Shown: piece by piece, positions 13,033 through 27,883 of the stretch
Position numbering within the stretch: position 1 is the stretch's first letter
Layout of the letters: every line of letters begins with the position of its first letter
Assembly (NCBI RefSeq): GCF_024205705.1
Contig: NZ_CP073115.1
Coordinates: 485,313 to 517,312 of the forward strand
Source of the DNA: Neisseria subflava
GTDB taxonomy: Bacteria > Pseudomonadota > Gammaproteobacteria > Burkholderiales > Neisseriaceae
Length of the DNA: 32,000 nt
Direction of reading: 5' to 3'
Translations under genes and position numbers: made by a program
Notes under the pieces: model-generated
Seen by the model: only the letters and a program-made list of their open reading frames with translations
What the model was told of the DNA's origin: nothing
The model's database searches: none

Positions 13033-14250
13033 GAGACCTTTGCAAAATTCCCCAAAATCCCCTAAATTCCCACTAAGACATTTAGGGGATTTTCCATGAG
13101 CACCTTCTTCCAGCAAACCGCCCAAGCCATGATTGCCAAACACATCGACCGTTTCCCACTATTGAAGTTGGATCAGGTGATTGATTGGCAACCGATCGAA
13201 CAATACCTGAATCGTCAAAAAACCCGTTACCTTCGAGACCACCGCGGCCGTCCCGCCTATCCCCTGTTGTCCATGTTCAAAGCCGTCCTGCTCGGCCAAT
13301 GGCACAGCCTCTCCGATCCCGAACTCGAACACAGCCTCATCACCCGCATCGATTTCAACCTGTTTTGCCGTTTTGACGAACTGAGCATCCCCGATTACAG
13401 CACCTTATGCCGCTACCGCAACTGGCTGGCGCAAGACGACACCCTGTCCGAATTGCTGGAACTGATTAACCGCCAACTGACCGAAAAAAACCTAAAAATA
13501 GAGAAAGCATCCGCCGCCGTCATTGACGCCACCATTATTCAGACCGCCGGCAGCAAACAGCGTCAGGCCATAGAAGTCGATGAAGAAGGACAAGTCAGCG
13601 GACAAACCACACCGAGTAAAGACAGCGATGCCCGCTGGACAAAGAAAAACGGTTTATACAGACTCGGTTACAAACAACATACCCGCACCGATGAGGAAGG
13701 CTATATCGAGAAACTGCATATTACCCCCGCCAACGCCCATGAGTGCAAACAGTTGTCGCCTTTATTGGAAGGTCTGCCCGAAGGTACGACCGTCTATGCC
13801 GACAAAGGCTATGACAGTGAAGAAAACCGGCAACATCTGGAAGAGCATCGGCTGCTGGACGGCATTATGCGCAAAGCACACCGTAACCATCCGCTGACGG
13901 AAGCGCAAACCAAACGCAACCGGTATTTGTCGAAGACCCGTTATGTGGTCGAACAAAGCTTTGGTACGCTGCACCGTAAATTCCGCTATGCCCGGGCAGC
14001 CTATTTCGGGCTGGTTAAAGTAAGTGCACAAAGCCATCTGAAGGCGATGTGTTTGAACCTTTTGAAAGCCGCCAACAGGCTAAGTGCGCCTGTTGCCGCC
14101 TAAAAGGCGGCCGGATGCCTGATTAATCAGGTATCCAAGGAGGATTAAGAGGGTATTTGAGTAGAATCAGTGGATATTTGAAACAAAAACAGCCGAAAAC
14201 CTGTGTTTGGATTTCGGCTGTCGGAAAGAAAGGAATTTTGCAAAGGTCTC
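13033..14250 (+). mobile_element. IS5-family insertion sequence (IS1106-like), apparently intact
   Basis: Perfect 19-bp terminal inverted repeats GAGACCTTTGCAAAATTCC (13033-13051; reverse complement at 14232-14250). They are flanked by the direct repeat GGCCT (13028-13032 and 14251-14255). The element has a single transposase ORF. Confidence 0.9.
13096..14103 (+). CDS. IS5-family DDE transposase
   Basis: 335-aa ORF. The N-terminal region has the pattern ..GRPAYPLLSMFKAVLLGQWHSLSDPELE... The C-terminal DDE region has ..VYADKGYDSEENR.. and ..RYVVEQSFGTLHRKF... Confidence 0.9.
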   Translation: MSTFFQQTAQAMIAKHIDRFPLLKLDQVIDWQPIEQYLNRQKTRYLRDHRGRPAYPLLSMFKAVLLGQWHSLSDPELEHSLITRIDFNLFCRFDELSIPDYSTLCRYRNWLAQDDTLSELLELINRQLTEKNLKIEKASAAVIDATIIQTAGSKQRQAIEVDEEGQVSGQTTPSKDSDARWTKKNGLYRLGYKQHTRTDEEGYIEKLHITPANAHECKQLSPLLEGLPEGTTVYADKGYDSEENRQHLEEHRLLDGIMRKAHRNHPLTEAQTKRNRYLSKTRYVVEQSFGTLHRKFRYARAAYFGLVKVSAQSHLKAMCLNLLKAANRLSAPVAA

Positions 14251-16576: not shown

Positions 16577-16606
16577 AAGGTCGTCTGAAAATTTTCAGAC
16601 GACCTT
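16577..16606. terminator. Inverted pair of variant DUS (AGGTCGTCTGAA), probable ancestral hemN terminator
   Basis: aaggtcgtctgaaa-at-tttcagacgacctt. It lies immediately left of the prophage. Confidence 0.5.
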
Positions 16607-16685
16607 ATATATTGCGTTCCATCAGGGGCGCATATTTTTAATTCTTGTAAAGCCCCTTAACTCTAGCCAGTGAAGGGGCTTAATC

Positions 16686-16916
16686 ATGTTTATTTTCTAT
16701 ACCGTCAATCCCGAACCCTTATCTTTCCCGAAAGCATACATCTTGAAAGTGTTCAGGGATAAAGACAACGAATCCCAATGCATCAAAACAGTTTGTTTCC
16801 CTATCCGCAATCCTACTTTGAAACAAAAAACCGAAAACGCCGCAAACGAATGCGGAAGACTTTTAGTAAGGGGATTGATGAATGAGGAATGCAACCGTGA
16901 AAGCCTTGGAAGATAA
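16686..16916 (+). CDS. Hypothetical small phage ORF upstream of and overlapping the Rep start
   Basis: 76-aa ORF with the SD-like gaagggg 7 nt upstream of the ATG. There is no recognisable motif. The region could instead be a non-coding origin or regulatory region. Confidence 0.25.
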   Translation: MFIFYTVNPEPLSFPKAYILKVFRDKDNESQCIKTVCFPIRNPTLKQKTENAANECGRLLVRGLMNEECNRESLGR

Positions 16917-18239
16917 AGCCGTGGCGGTGGTCGCGGATATGGCGGACGCGTCAGCGGACGGCAAGGCTGCGACAACCGCCGAAGGCTGCCCCCTAGGCTA
17001 ATAGGGGGGGAGCAAAATAAAACCCATAATCCGAAGGGTGCGGAAAAATCGGATAACCAAGACTTTGAGTTTGAATATTTCAGCCATTTCGTATCCGATG
17101 GAAAAGGCAAATTCATCGAAATACCTTTAAGACGTGGCAGGGATGACGGTGCATTTATTGACCAAATCACTTTTACAATTCATGAAGACAGTTTGCCTAA
17201 AGTAACAGGTAAAGGATTGGTGTCAGATACAGAATTTGTTGTGAAGTATAGCGAGCTTTTAGAAGAAATTTTAGGTTTTGGCATTACCCAAAAACTACCG
17301 TTTAAAGGCAAGTTTTTCTATAAAAGCTGTTACCAACTTGGTCCGGATAACGTCGAATATGGCAAGGTTCATTACGGCGGTCAGCGTGAAACAATGTTGG
17401 TTGAATTGAATGGTACAGGTTGTCAGGCTGCTATACCCGGTTGGGAAAACCGACTGTATGAGTTTTTAAGTAAGTGCATACGTCCAAAAATTACCCGTGT
17501 TGATGTGGCCCATGATTTTTTTAACGGCGAATACACACCCGATCAGGCATTACTTGATCATGACAACGGCCATTTTGACGTTCATAACATGAGGCCAAAA
17601 AGCGAATGCCGAGGTACTGCATGGCGCAATGATGACGGTAGCGGCAAAACCTTTTATGTAGGTAAACGCGGAAATTCTAAATTTACCCGTGTTTATGAGA
17701 AAGGAAAACAATTTGGCGATGTCAACAGTCCATGGGTCAGGTTTGAAACTGAATTTCGGGCAGGCGATATAGAAATCCCCTTAGATGTTTTGCTTTATCC
17801 CGGTTCGTATCTTGGTGGTGCTTACCCGATATGTTCGGCGATATTCAAAACAGAAGCTAAGCGGATGGATGCCAAGACAGAAACAGTAAATTTATCTTTC
17901 GATCACAAACTGTTCCATGCGCGTAATCAGGTTGGAAAAATGGTTAATTTCCTTCGCGATATAGGATGGGATGATACAAAAATCGTCGATGAACTTGTAA
18001 AAGGCATTGAAGGTTATCCCAAAGGTTTACAACCTGAACAATACGATTGTAGAGATCAGACACAAAAGATTCAGTATATCCACGAAGAGCAAAAAGCAAT
18101 TGATGATTTGAATATGCAAACATTACTTGATGATTTGCTTGATGAGAAAGAAACCGCATTTCCACAAGACAGGGAAAAACAACACATTAAAGACATCGAA
18201 CTCGAAGAGAAAATTATTTCAAATTTTTTAAACAAGTAA
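16882..18239 (+). CDS. Phage replication initiation protein (RstA/Rep_trans-like), reading frame interrupted at a C5 tract (16989-16993)
   Basis: The track ORF 17193-18239 starts at TTG, but its frame is open back to 16917 with no ATG/GTG/TTG. That upstream part encodes protein-like sequence, including GAFIDQITFTIHE, which resembles the IDWLxFT motif found near the N-terminus of RstA-type initiators. A 39-codon ORF with a good SD (aagggga-N7-ATG at 16882) ends at the TAA at 16999. One extra C, or a -1 slip in CCCCC, fuses the two into a protein of about 450 aa. Confidence 0.7.
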
Positions 18240-18251
18240 AGGAAATTCAAA

Positions 18252-18563
18252 ATGTTTGAGCAAAGCCAAGTAACCACGTATTCAGCAACCCTGTTGGGTG
18301 CAAAACAATTCAAAGGCGAAATTGACGGTAACAAAATCGATTCTTGCACAGTTTTGGTAGCCAGCCCCATGCCTTCAAACGGCAATTCCGTAGGTTTTAC
18401 CGCGGCAAGCATGAAGTTTGGCGATAGCCATAATTTCGACAAGCTGAAAAATCTTAAATTCCCATGCGCGGTTGATGTAACCGTCGCCATGGAATCAACA
18501 GGTAAAGGCCTAGTTCCTAAATTGCTTGATTTCCAAGTTAAAGGCTCAGCGCCCAAAGCCTAA
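18252..18563 (+). CDS. Phage protein, possibly the ssDNA-binding protein (assigned by position only)
   Basis: 103-aa soluble ORF directly after Rep, as in other inoviruses. I recognise no motif. Confidence 0.35.
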   Translation: MFEQSQVTTYSATLLGAKQFKGEIDGNKIDSCTVLVASPMPSNGNSVGFTAASMKFGDSHNFDKLKNLKFPCAVDVTVAMESTGKGLVPKLLDFQVKGSAPKA

Positions 18564-18576
18564 GAAAGGCTGAATC

Positions 18577-18780
18577 ATGAGTAAGTATCAGCAAAAATTT
18601 ATTGTTCAAGAACTCGAAAATCATGAATTCATCTATCCCGATCCATTCGGTGATATTGGTTTCACTCCTAATATTAAATCTGCCGGTCAATATGAAAGCT
18701 ATGAAGATGCTTTCAATTCGGCGATTGAAGAAATCGGCGGCGAATTTTTAATTTTCAGTTTTTATACAAAAGAAGACTAA
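18577..18780 (+). CDS. Hypothetical small acidic phage protein
   Basis: 67-aa ORF, tightly spaced after the preceding gene. Confidence 0.4.
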   Translation: MSKYQQKFIVQELENHEFIYPDPFGDIGFTPNIKSAGQYESYEDAFNSAIEEIGGEFLIFSFYTKED

Positions 18781-18865
18781 GTTTAAGAGGCTCGGCGGGC
18801 GGTCTCTAAAACCTTCACATAGCCCGCAAACACATTTTTTTAAACATTTCGTAAAGGAAAACATC

Positions 18866-19084
18866 ATGAAATTGATGAACACTTGCCGTAAATACGGCGC
18901 AAAACTGGCCGTTGTTGCCGCAGCTCCTCTGGCTTTGGCTACACAAGCCTATGCCGCTCTTGATGAAGGTGCAAAATCAGCCCTTGAAGCCGCAAAAACT
19001 GACGGCCTTGAAGCAGGATGGTTGGTAGTCGGCGTATTTGCCGCTTTGTTCGTTATTGCCATTGTTAAACGCTTATTGCGCTAA
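18866..19084 (+). CDS. Inovirus major coat protein (pVIII-like)
   Basis: 72 aa. It has a signal peptide ending AYA, an acidic amphipathic N-terminus (ALDEGAKSALEAAKTDGLEAG), a hydrophobic helix (WLVVGVFAALFVIAIV) and a basic C-terminus (KRLLR). The SD aaagga is upstream. Confidence 0.8.
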   Translation: MKLMNTCRKYGAKLAVVAAAPLALATQAYAALDEGAKSALEAAKTDGLEAGWLVVGVFAALFVIAIVKRLLR

Positions 19085-19096
19085 TAGGTAATTAAG

Positions 19097-19372
19097 ATGT
19101 ACTACCAAGTCGGGAATAAATGTCTTGAGCAAAGCCAAGCTGAAAACGTCTATTTCAGCTTGGTAGTACCTCAAATTAGCCAAGACGGCAAAATTATCAA
19201 ACCTGAGTACAACGGTACAGTATGGAAACTCAACGGACAGACGATTAAAGCCGATTTGCCCAAATGCGATCCAAGTGAAAATCTGAAAAGCGGTTTGGAT
19301 ACAGGATGGCTCTTGTTCGGCGTGATGGCTGCTGTGTATTTCGTATCCATTTTGAAAAGGGTTCTCAAATGA
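19097..19372 (+). CDS. Phage minor coat-like protein with C-terminal membrane anchor
   Basis: 91 aa. The C-terminus GWLLFGVMAAVYFVSILKRVLK parallels the coat protein TM-plus-basic tail. Confidence 0.5.
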   Translation: MYYQVGNKCLEQSQAENVYFSLVVPQISQDGKIIKPEYNGTVWKLNGQTIKADLPKCDPSENLKSGLDTGWLLFGVMAAVYFVSILKRVLK

Positions 19373-19440
19373 TGGATTACTATTTTTACTTGGGTCTGGC
19401 GGTACCTGTTTTGATAGGGGCTATTTTATTTAAGGATTGA
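19369..19440 (+). CDS. Unannotated 23-codon hydrophobic micro-ORF (pVII/pIX-like candidate)
   Basis: My own translation is MMDYYFYLGLAVPVLIGAILFKD. Its ATG overlaps the stop of the preceding gene (aATGa), suggesting translational coupling. It is below the ORF-track size cutoff. Confidence 0.35.
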   Translation: MMDYYFYLGLAVPVLIGAILFKD

Positions 19441-19499
19441 TACCCTATTCGGGTAATGTCAAAATCTAACTTTCAGCAATCATTACGAAAGTTAGTATT

Positions 19500-19820
19500 A
19501 TGTTTTATATTTCAGAAGAAGAATTGAGATTCAAAAAAGACACGAATCCAGATTATTTAAATGAAAAATTGTGTCATGTTTTTATGGCTGAAATGTTCAA
19601 ACTTAAAGAAATTTATCCAATTTCTGATTTTAAGAACATGGTAAAAAGTGCAGCTCAATATTTCTTAAATCGAACATATCTTGATGATATGTTAGTTTTT
19701 TTTGAAGATGGCTCTTTTTTAAAATTTCAGTTTTTAGAACATGGCTTTGAATGCAAAGAGTTCTATGATGGTCAAATTTCTACGGCTTATTATTATGGCC
19801 GTTATTCTATTAGGATTTAA
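19500..19820 (+). CDS. Hypothetical soluble protein in a strongly AT-rich segment (possible phage cargo/moron)
   Basis: 106 codons are open in DNA that is visibly the most AT-rich of the prophage. There is no signal peptide or TM segment. It is preceded by two hairpins (19441-19455, 19467-19494) and overlaps the start of the pIII-like gene. Confidence 0.45.
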   Translation: MFYISEEELRFKKDTNPDYLNEKLCHVFMAEMFKLKEIYPISDFKNMVKSAAQYFLNRTYLDDMLVFFEDGSFLKFQFLEHGFECKEFYDGQISTAYYYGRYSIRI

Positions 19821-26632: not shown

Positions 26633-27582
26633 TTAAATTGAAAAATCTTCCACGACCGGCGTGTACAGAATGCGGTCGACTACTTCTCTGGTCAGTTTCG
26701 GTGCAAACATCTGGATAAAGTCATACGCGTAACCGCGCAGGTAGGTATCCGAGCGTAAGGCTATCCAAGTGGGCGACGGTTCAAATAAGTGTGCCGCATC
26801 AATAAGCTGTAAATCTTGATCGACAACGGGATCGTACGCCATTTTAGCCATCAAACCAACGCCCAAGCCTAAGCGGACATACGTCTTCAGTACATCTGTA
26901 TCGGCAGCCGATAAGGCAACATCAGGTTGCTCAATATGCGCTTTATTAAATGTACGCGCGATGCTGCTGCCGGAATTAAAAGCAAATTCGTAAGTAACCA
27001 GTGGAAAAGAAGCCAAATCTTCAAGGCTTAAAGGATTGCGGCAGTCCAAAAGAGGGTGGTCGTGCGGAACAATGACGGCATGGTTCCATTCGTAGCAGGG
27101 CAGCTTGCCCAACTCAGGATGATCGTCAATGCGTTCAGTAATAATTGCCAAATCAGCTTCGCCGCTGCTGACCATTTGCGCAATGGCAGAGGGCTGCCTT
27201 GTTTGATGGTCAAATTGACCTTAGGGTAGTTTTTGACAAATTCCGCAACGATTTTGGGCAAAGCATAACGCGCCTGGGTATGCGTTGTCGCGATGGTCAG
27301 CGAACCGCTGTCATGATCGGTAAACTCGCTGCCGATATTTTTAATGTTTTGTACATCGCGCAAAATTCGTTCCGAAATTTCTAACACGGCTTTGCCTGGT
27401 TGCGAAACGGAAACCACACGCTTGCCGCTGCGGATAAAAATTTGGATACCCAATTCTTCTTCAAGTAGGCGGATTTGTTTGGAAATGCCGGGCTGGGATG
27501 TAAAAAGCGCATCGGCAGCCTCGGAGACATTCAGATTGTGCCGGTAAACTTCAAGGGCGTAACGTAATTGTTGCAGTTTCAT
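26633..27582 (-). pseudogene. cysB: LysR-family regulator CysB, split by a 1-nt frameshift (or an assembly indel)
   Basis: Two overlapping ORFs. The N-terminal one has MKLQQLRYALEV..HTH..IKQGSP and then runs out of frame. The C-terminal one has (SAIAQ)MVSSGEADLAIIT..LPCYEWNHAVIVP... The junction QGSP|SAIAQMV is restored by adding one C to the run at plus-strand GGG 27191-27193. Confidence 0.8.
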
Positions 27583-27883
27583 GGTAGCAGTACCGAATAC
27601 GTTGTTATTGTGGATTTTGTGCGACAAACGGCATGTAATTTAACATATTTTGCCCAGTTTTGCCCCGAGTTTTGAAAATGGTTGTTTTTAATGAAAATAT
27701 CTTTTAATGATATGAAAACAGGAAATTCAGGAAAGAAGAGGGAAAGGGGTTTTGTTGTTTTTGTACAACTTTAGGTAGGTGAATTGTCTGATTTTGCCCT
27801 AAATTAATGACACAAGATTGATTTTTCGGCATGATTAACTACTAGGAAGCAGGCACTTCATGATTGTTTGAAGGCATCGAGTA

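Follow-up and report, generated by a model that had tools for sequence, protein, structure and literature searches.

Why is the replication initiator gene of a filamentous prophage split precisely where a run of C can pair with a nearby run of G? The question is raised by a locus of the commensal Neisseria subflava (NCBI RefSeq assembly GCF_024205705.1, contig NZ_CP073115.1, positions 485,313 to 517,312 of the forward strand). The whole stretch of 32,000 nucleotides that was analysed is called the window here, and positions are counted from its first letter. The original prediction, made from these letters alone, proposed for the prophage rep gene a stochastic ON/OFF switch, a programmed -1 ribosomal frameshift or an inactivating lesion, and cautioned that a sequencing or assembly artefact could look the same. 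The analysis indicates that the two tracts are very probably the arms of a nick-site hairpin of the phage plus-strand origin, which in this lineage is translated as part of rep. As written, rep is OFF, probably through a genuine loss of one base from the C tract.

The elements on which the argument turns are the following, + denoting the forward strand.

16989-17010, +: very probable nick-site hairpin of the phage plus-strand origin, with the C5 arm at 16989-16993, the loop GGCTAA at 16996-17001 and the G7 arm at 17004-17010.
16989-16993, +: C tract of five bases, one base below the in-frame alleles (C6) when aligned with 10 close loci; this shortening is what splits rep.
17004-17010, +: G tract of seven bases, right arm of the hairpin.
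16882-17001, +: 5' part of rep in frame A, of 39 codons if read from ATG 16882 and 34 if read from the conserved GTG 16897.
16992-18239, +: body of rep in frame B, from PRLIGGEQ to the stop at 18237-18239, open throughout.
17073-17090 (EYFSHF), 17121-17138 (IPLRRG) and 17151-17177 (AFIDQITFT), +: invariant N-terminal core in frame B.
17193-18239, +: sole open reading frame (ORF) of the C5 allele with a canonical start (TTG, 348 amino acids), which keeps the catalytic domain and lacks the invariant N-terminal core.
17490-17753, +: Rep_trans catalytic motifs I (ITRVDVAHD, 17490-17516), II (TFYVG, 17649-17663), III (VYEKGK, 17691-17708) and IV (WVRFETE, 17733-17753).
17694-17696, +: codon of the catalytic tyrosine of motif III (alignment to RepSTK1, 4cij_A).

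The anatomy of the split can be read directly from the sequence. In the C5 allele, frame A ends at a TAA (16999-17001) that is at the same time the TAA of the hairpin loop CT'AA, and TAA TAG spans 16999-17004. The frame of the remaining protein is open from 16917 to 18239 and contains only ATC, ATA and ATT codons before its first ATG, GTG or TTG, which is the TTG at 17193. By homology, the 348-residue product of this TTG is probably inactive, because the invariant N-terminal core with its block of columns P77, R79, G81 and D89, invariant among 24 aligned homologues, lies before it. The tracts, the hairpin of 7 bp, the 39-codon ORF with its two stops, the bounds of the Rep frame and the TTG are all present as originally described, and AFIDQITFT, which had been placed near the N-terminus, forms part of the invariant core. 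The proposed ATG start at 16882 was upheld in part. It is shared by a sub-lineage to which it is restricted (the window, L027, L184, L197 and L206), but gene callers and most relatives use the in-frame GTG at 16897, which is preceded by the Shine-Dalgarno sequence GAGGA at 16885-16889.

One extra C conceptually joins the two parts into a Rep of about 450 residues, as had been foreseen. The joined protein matches the Pfam family Rep_trans (PF02486) over residues 203-373 with 131.2 bits for a gathering cut-off of 29.6, and motifs I (RxD), II (TxYxG), III (YxK) and IV (WxRxE), defined in earlier work (PMC5714925), are all present as ITRVD, TFYVG, VYEKGK and WVRFE in the alignment to RepSTK1 (4cij_A). 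On these matches the gene can be assigned to the Rep_trans or RstA-type phage replication initiators, in line with the original prediction. PDB sequence and profile searches retrieved RepSTK1 only, with alignments that stop short of the N-terminal AFIDQ motif. A search with the joined Rep found 242 relatives at E <= 1e-5, the top one being a protein of 453 amino acids with 98% identity, which stands at the head of a cluster with 1401 members. The intact relatives encode ...EGCPPRLIGGEQ... or ...AEGCPPRLIGGEQNKT... on C6/G7 DNA, and their junction peptide, CPPRLIGGEQ, is exactly the one predicted for the repaired gene. In the related phage MDA, deletion of orf1 (rep) abolishes the replicative form and the production of particles.

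What, then, is the sequence at which the gene is split? The inverted repeat CCCCCTA/TAGGGGG forms a perfect stem of 7 bp with the six-nucleotide loop GGCTAA. The original prediction had the stem right for the window, but it is 8 bp long in the in-frame C6 allele, and the identity of the hairpin as a nick site had been missed. The hairpin folds at -12.4 kcal/mol, a stability equalled in 1 of 200 shuffles. G7 is the only run of at least six G or C in the 32 kb, where G or C runs of at least five number six in total, and the motif CCCCTAGGCTAANAGGGG occurs once in the window for 0 expected from 100 shuffles. The feature with its C5 and G7 runs is thus no chance occurrence.

Conservation of the hairpin is seen directly, and it does not depend on coding. 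In Kingella, Eikenella, Alysiella, Snodgrassella and N. shayeganii, whose Rep proteins are only about 50% identical, the DNA CCCCCC(C)TAGGCTAANAGGGGGGG is kept without change between flanks that defy alignment. Several of these lineages (Kingella/Alysiella type) have a Rep that starts 60-90 nt 3' of the hairpin, which lies in the tail of another ORF or is intergenic. In the same way, the Rep of 404 amino acids (MSEVEYFSHF...) of N. meningitidis CP031326 begins with an ATG that follows (C)7TTGACTAACA(G)7 at a distance of 37 nt. Orthologues starting downstream of the tracts, which the original prediction had considered, do therefore exist in the meningococcal type, but none was found in the lineage of the window. 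Third codon positions within the hairpin DNA show no variation. The hairpin was present in 17 of 17 loci that had been found by protein alone and that include the 5' end of rep, and also in L165-L168. When IMG/VR was searched under relaxed criteria, C>=5-TNNNCTAANA-G>=5 was found in at least 120 contigs; among the 158 instances analysed, 139 had a Rep_trans-like ORF on the same strand, starting -53 to +240 nt from the end of the hairpin. Taken together, these sequences argue that the hairpin is a DNA element conserved irrespective of translation, and not a protein motif.

Very distant Rep_trans-like proteins of 287-342 amino acids (L054, L080 and L142; E values of 1e-10 to 1e-12 against the Neisseriaceae profile) are likewise preceded by a C6-T...CTAA.A-G6 hairpin, which in L054 lies 23 nt ahead of the ORF. 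Because these distant initiators carry the same hairpin, the element appears to reach well beyond Neisseriaceae phages.

Nick sites of the same enzyme family have been mapped elsewhere. A CT'AA carried by the loop of a hairpin rich in G and C is the nic site common to MOBT relaxases and Rep_trans initiators (PMC9371924), and the origins of transfer (oriT) of the integrative elements ICEBs1 and ICESt3 are ACCCCCCCACGCTAACAGGGGGGT and ACCCCCGATTTCTAATAGGGGGGT, respectively (PMC10233336). The origin of the plasmid pT181 forms part of the coding sequence of rep, in a section whose peptide is not required (PMC5703833). The pT181-family repeat IR-II, AACCGGCTACTCTAATAGCCGGTT, is likewise located inside staphylococcal rep genes, and the two hairpins fold alike, with 8 bp and a loop of 6 nt here and 9 bp and a loop of 6 nt in pT181. 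The element thus matches an origin nick hairpin in sequence, architecture and position, since the CT'AA loop, the shape of the fold and the association with Rep_trans genes all agree with known nic sites. The conserved motif (C)n-TNNNCT'AANA-(G)m accordingly reads like the nick-site hairpin of Rep_trans and MOBT enzymes, and we hold with considerable confidence that it serves Rep as its nick site. The nick itself is predicted at CT'AA, between T16999 and A17000.

Further elements surround the hairpin.

16917-16987, no strand assigned: long imperfect GC-rich hairpin (IR-I) directly 5' of the nick hairpin, lineage-specific in sequence and conserved in structure and position.
17022-17039, no strand assigned: short inverted repeat ACCC-N10-GGGT, noticed by eye, with its centre about 31 bp 3' of the predicted nick.
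17036-17045: the right arm a second time, in degenerate form (GGGTGCGGAA), at which the window matches only 7 of 10 positions.

The two hairpins together (DNA fold of 16905-17015) reach -32.3 kcal/mol, with z = -5.07 and 0 of 200 shuffles as stable. Lineages are too divergent in this region to be aligned for a covariance model, and the upstream hairpin was judged by fold z-scores against shuffles. The 75 nt upstream gave z below -2 in 30 of 50 non-redundant loci, with a mean z of -2.9 versus -0.2 and -0.3 in two control regions. The upstream hairpins end 0-6 nt 5' of the C tract, are wholly different in sequence between lineages, and are kept even where they are non-coding. Candidate roles are those of a Rep specificity site, a minus-strand origin or a packaging signal. 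As both hairpins lie in them, the first 40 or so codons of rep in the lineage of the window are origin DNA that happens to be translated. On the other side, 8 of 25 lineages have a second right-arm copy (at least 8 of 10 positions of GGGGGAGCAA) at a distance of 24-31 nt past the G tract, for a shuffle frequency of 0.026. This copy, seen for example in L010, L011, L017, L047 and L104, often follows a short C-run that gives a third small inverted repeat. With low confidence, the repeat at 17022-17039 and the second right-arm copy are put forward as a candidate Rep-binding site like ICRIII of pT181.

If the hairpin is an origin, why is the gene out of frame? The lengths of the arms set the frame: C6/G7 is in frame, and C5, G5, G6, G8 and G9 are out of frame. 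Tracts of C5-13 and G5-9 were observed on otherwise identical backgrounds, and this polymorphism is seen directly. The body of rep in the window is 100% identical over 1250 nt to the C6/G7 allele L027, and 16624-18842 is identical apart from the extra C. Three gonococcal alleles, L006 (G6), L075 (G7) and L068 (G8), are 100% identical over 1250 nt, and so are L032 (G6) and L064 (G7). Among 127 close reps, 84 are read through in frame, 9 have their own downstream start, 21 have no start before the conserved core and 13 are unclassifiable. The first 68 loci with a TAGGCTAA-type loop, together with the window, comprise 60 at C6/G7 or C7/G7 and 9 of other lengths, and a metagenome scan gave 47 of 62 at in-frame lengths with a spread of others. 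Across three collections, the share of loci with an off-length allele is about 12-20%. A rough count of OFF frequency in chromosomal and in free-phage contigs gave no clear difference.

Selection on the OFF lineages can also be read directly. A second C5/G7 allele is present in an independent short-read metagenome contig (SPAdes, 38x) from a strain that is about 5% diverged, with the prophage at the same chromosomal site. It differs from the window by 52 synonymous and 7 non-synonymous changes, which corresponds to a ratio of non-synonymous to synonymous rates (dN/dS) of 0.029. Comparison of the window with a G6 and with a G8 allele gave 0.029 and 0.017, and the divergence of OFF alleles is 88-93% synonymous. 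Because divergence among them is almost purely synonymous, the OFF states are young and recurrent, in lineages that have been under purifying selection for most of their history.

A sister tract has been described in N. gonorrhoeae. The gonococcal "replication initiation factor" genes NGO_06135 and NGO_06695, with (C)8TTATCTAACA(G)7, were reported as translationally phase-variable by Zelewska et al. (2016, PMC5320596), with tracts of C6-11 and G5-8 across six genomes and variation within cultures by Ion Torrent and Illumina sequencing (PMC5320596). We confirmed that this tract occupies the equivalent position in a gonococcal rep. Homopolymer slippage, which the original prediction had invoked, is the relevant mechanism, and the stochastic ON/OFF option is the best fit among its three, given the two-way changes in length on identical backgrounds, the synonymous divergence of OFF alleles and the published gonococcal tract. 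No paper linking the gonococcal repeat to a nick hairpin was found in the searchable literature.

Another kind of variation was seen nearby. Six TTATCTAACA-type reps (L078, L090, L111, L147, L154 and L164) have C6/G7 and are out of frame; in these, 87 nt separate the hairpin from the IPLRRG core, the usual spacing being 88. This suggests a second hot spot of 1-nt indels just 3' of the hairpin in reps of this type.

Among the alternatives, the most serious, though one we consider unlikely, is that the strain is truly C6/G7 with an intact rep and that one C was lost in base-calling or polishing. The allele L027 is identical over about 2.2 kb except for its C6, an exact look-up of the 348-residue ORF found no record of this product, and the window holds another 1-nt deletion that breaks cysB. 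The original prediction had cited the latter as a further homopolymer indel. It proved otherwise: the deletion (GCAGAAGGGC -> GCAGAGGGC) sits in the AA dinucleotide 27189/27190, outside any homopolymer tract. The gene (minus strand, 26633-27627) is split there into ORFs of 199 and 180 amino acids; cysB is intact in five related genomes, and in four related genomes the additional A is present and the gene codes for 316 amino acids. The split may reflect a true pseudogene or, alternatively, an indel of the assembly. Against an artefact at the C tract stand all other genes of the 32 kb, which read through, including 45 other runs of at least six bases, the presence of the same C5/G7 in the independent 38x short-read assembly of a different strain, and the share of off-length alleles in all three collections. 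We thus regard C5 as a probably real, slipped OFF allele.

Could the prophage instead be a dead remnant, with the frameshift as its first inactivating lesion? Several chromosomal copies elsewhere are broken at the tracts or at other places (L005, L006, L007, L008 and L013), and OFF prophages would be cheaper for the host. Yet all other phage ORFs in the window are open, and the body of rep is 100% identical to that of an in-frame allele. The low dN/dS of the OFF alleles (0.017-0.029) implies that their lineages have not been OFF long enough to decay, and both expansions and contractions are seen on identical backgrounds. Irreversible decay is therefore improbable.

Still less credit can be given to a programmed -1 ribosomal frameshift, or transcriptional slippage, on C CCC C, which would be stimulated by the hairpin and yield full-length Rep. 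The P-site tRNA-Pro could re-pair perfectly one base back on CCCCC, and two diverged strains share C5/G7 while rep is under strong purifying selection. However, UGC CCC CUA contains no X XXY YYZ heptamer, since CUA in the A site is unable to re-pair with CCU. The slip site is also where the stem begins, so that there is no spacer of 5-9 nt, and the hairpin is equally conserved where it is untranslated. Moreover, the out-of-frame layout is not conserved, as 84 of the 114 classifiable relatives are in frame and the identical allele L027 has C6. The OFF alleles (G6, G8, G9 and C5, that is -1, +1 and +2) would need corrections of different sign, beyond any single recoding event, and an Rfam search gave only sub-threshold noise. 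Programmed -1 frameshifting, the second option of the original prediction, is not supported, as it fails the tests of heptamer, spacer and conserved layout.

Hardly worth retaining is the idea that a protein motif (PPRL-GG) or a regulatory structure of the mRNA is conserved rather than an origin element in DNA, for although the hairpin is translated in the lineage of the window as CPPRLIGGE and this peptide is conserved, the DNA is also conserved in the 3' end of an upstream ORF, in intergenic positions and 23-240 nt upstream of very distant Rep_trans genes, its third codon positions are invariant, and it agrees with nic sites that experiments have mapped for the same enzyme family.

The account that we favour, with somewhat less assurance as a whole than for the reality of the C5 allele, combines an origin nick hairpin with a slipped, probably reversible Rep-OFF allele. 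In an Nf-type filamentous prophage of commensal Neisseria (subflava/flavescens group), 16989-17010 would be the nick hairpin of the plus-strand origin. The Rep_trans initiator encoded by the same gene would bind the origin and extrude the poly-C/poly-G stem. By homology with the enzymes above, it would then cut at CT'AA in the loop (predicted T16999|A17000) and initiate rolling-circle replication. Translation of rep from GTG 16897 or ATG 16882 would cross the upstream hairpin, then the nick hairpin and then the conserved core, so that the lengths of both arms would determine the frame, C6/G7 being the in-frame combination. C5/G7 would represent a contraction of one base by slipped-strand mispairing, after which translation would end at the TAA of the loop. 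With no start before the invariant N-terminal core, Rep would be OFF and the prophage alone would make no replicative form. This OFF state is young and, by analogy with the gonococcal tract, probably reversible, and one of a family of recurrent tract-length variants. Whether it reverts at a useful rate is a more evenly balanced matter, and we would give equal weight to both answers.

Several points weigh against this account. No experimental mapping of the nick site of a Neisseria phage, nor of an Nf-type origin, was found in the searchable literature, and the motif strings do not occur in it either. C5 and C6 fall below the lengths at which Neisseria tracts are usually regarded as phase-variable, and G7 is borderline; high-rate slippage usually occurs at tracts of at least seven G or C. 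Off-length alleles may also have been overcounted through homopolymer miscalls in public assemblies. The invariant Asp of AFIDQ may be the catalytic Asp of motif N', a metal ligand, an assignment for which the PDB alignments do not extend far enough. Finally, the "switch" may be a by-product of origin architecture and not a selected device. Tracts vary from C7 to C11 also in the meningococcal type, where the hairpin is non-coding and Rep is unaffected, and slippage is thus a property of the hairpin itself.

Comparison with known systems helps to place the element. The double-strand origin of pT181 (IR-II/ICRII in repC/repD) shares with it a Rep_trans (PF02486) initiator, a GC-rich repeat with a six-nucleotide loop containing CT'AA (AACCGGCTA-CTCTAA-TAGCCGGTT in pT181, CCCCCCTA-GGCTAA-TAGGGGGG in the window), a location in the 5' part of the rep coding region, where the pT181 peptide is dispensable, and flanking inverted repeats. 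It differs in that the arms in the window are pure homopolymers, that the host element is an inovirus prophage of a Gram-negative bacterium and not a staphylococcal plasmid, and that the window has only a candidate Rep-binding site. Frame switching is not known in pT181, and its nick position is taken to follow the CT'AA given for the enzyme family (PMC9371924). The oriT of MOBT elements (ICEBs1 with NicK, ICESt3 with RelSt3 and Tn916 with Orf20) also has a poly-C arm, a loop of 9-11 nt with CT'AA and a poly-G arm, and adjoins the relaxase gene. Unlike the present element, it belongs to Firmicutes, its nick serves conjugative transfer besides replication, and its hairpin has not been reported as a translated tract that sets the frame.

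Closer relatives are found in Neisseria itself. The gonococcal NGO_06135/NGO_06695 repeat belongs to a homologous Nf-type rep, lies at the same position, has the same Cn-10 nt-Gm design and is a translational ON/OFF tract. In contrast to the window, its loop is a different variant (TAGGCTAATA), its tracts are longer (C6-11 versus C6/G7 in frame) and its host is not a commensal. Phage, hairpin and origin go unmentioned in the report on it (Zelewska et al. 2016, PMC5320596). ORF1 of the MDAphi/Nf1-type meningococcal phages encodes a homologous Rep (58% identity) that is required for the replicative form, and has the hairpin (C)7TTGACTAACA(G)7; here, however, the Rep ATG lies 37 nt past the hairpin and tract length (C7-C11 observed) has no effect on the frame. 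The ori(+) of CTXphi, used by RstA, likewise has a long hairpin before the nick hairpin, but it is an intergenic origin of about 167 bp that depends on HU, is nicked between G and T and has no homopolymer arms.

Around rep, the remaining features are these.

16686-16916, +: small conserved ORF of 76 amino acids, 5' of rep and overlapping its start (ORF list).
18252-24073, +: remainder of the inovirus prophage, all ORFs open.
18866-19084, +: major coat protein.
21641-22819, +: Zot-like assembly protein.
23117-24073, +: IS110-type transposase.

The 76-residue ORF had no match in a PHROG search, and in L167 a homologue of 72 residues overlaps the start of rep. Further prophage ORFs encode a phrog_4994 protein, minor coat proteins and a protein of 531 amino acids. 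Nf phages of pathogenic Neisseria integrate in dRS3; this repeat (ATTCCC-N8-GGGAAT, up to one mismatch) is absent from the whole 32-kb window, so that the prophage departs from Nf-type prophages in this respect. The module order of the type is present, namely rep, a small ssDNA-binding-like ORF, coat proteins, the Zot-like assembly protein and the IS110/Piv-type transposase, as described for Nf-type Neisseria filamentous prophages (PMC7058167).

Other observations concern the modules and flanks of the prophage. By its flanking genes, the window belongs to the N. subflava/flavescens group. Identity of the rep module to L027 ends at about 18842 and is followed by divergence (18870-22424 compared), that is, by module mosaicism. 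The prophage of L184 sits at the same chromosomal site as that of the window; flanks and rep are 94-95% identical to it and the structural genes match only patchily, at 87%. Just left of the rep module, 16577-16606 holds a perfect inverted repeat of 13 bp (AAGGTCGTCTGAAAATTTTCAGACGACCTT) with two motifs resembling DNA uptake sequences, followed by a T-run, an arrangement that resembles a bidirectional terminator. At 13096-14103, between argF and the region bearing the prophage, there is an intact transposase gene of the IS5 family (IS1106-like), and in L206 a copy of the 5' end of the IS1106-like transposase adjoins the phage.

For the biology of these phages, the finding would mean that the published "phase-variable repeat" of Neisseria replication initiation factor genes consists of the left and right arms of the hairpin at which the origin of filamentous prophages is nicked. 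A precise origin is thereby offered for Nf-type phages, with a predicted nick at CT'AA. The one-base shortening of the C arm, which puts rep out of frame, would be a hypermutable switch of a kind already on record for Neisseria, and not a recoding signal. Tract-switchable would be the commensal type and the gonococcal Nf4-like type, in which rep is read through the hairpin, and not switchable the meningococcal MDA-like type. For annotation, a rep split at the hairpin would be a tract-length variant of one intact gene and not two genes. A more speculative idea, which we regard as doubtful, is that the origin hairpin doubles as a replication-coupled switch, in which rolling-circle rounds, starting and ending in the hairpin, would drive slippage of its arms. 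If this were true, read-through lineages would continually yield Rep-OFF genomes with a working origin. Replicated in trans, such genomes could be packaged, integrate as silent prophages (or cheaters) and later revert. Phage activity in Neisseria populations would then be set by the lengths of the arms, acting as a heritable memory.

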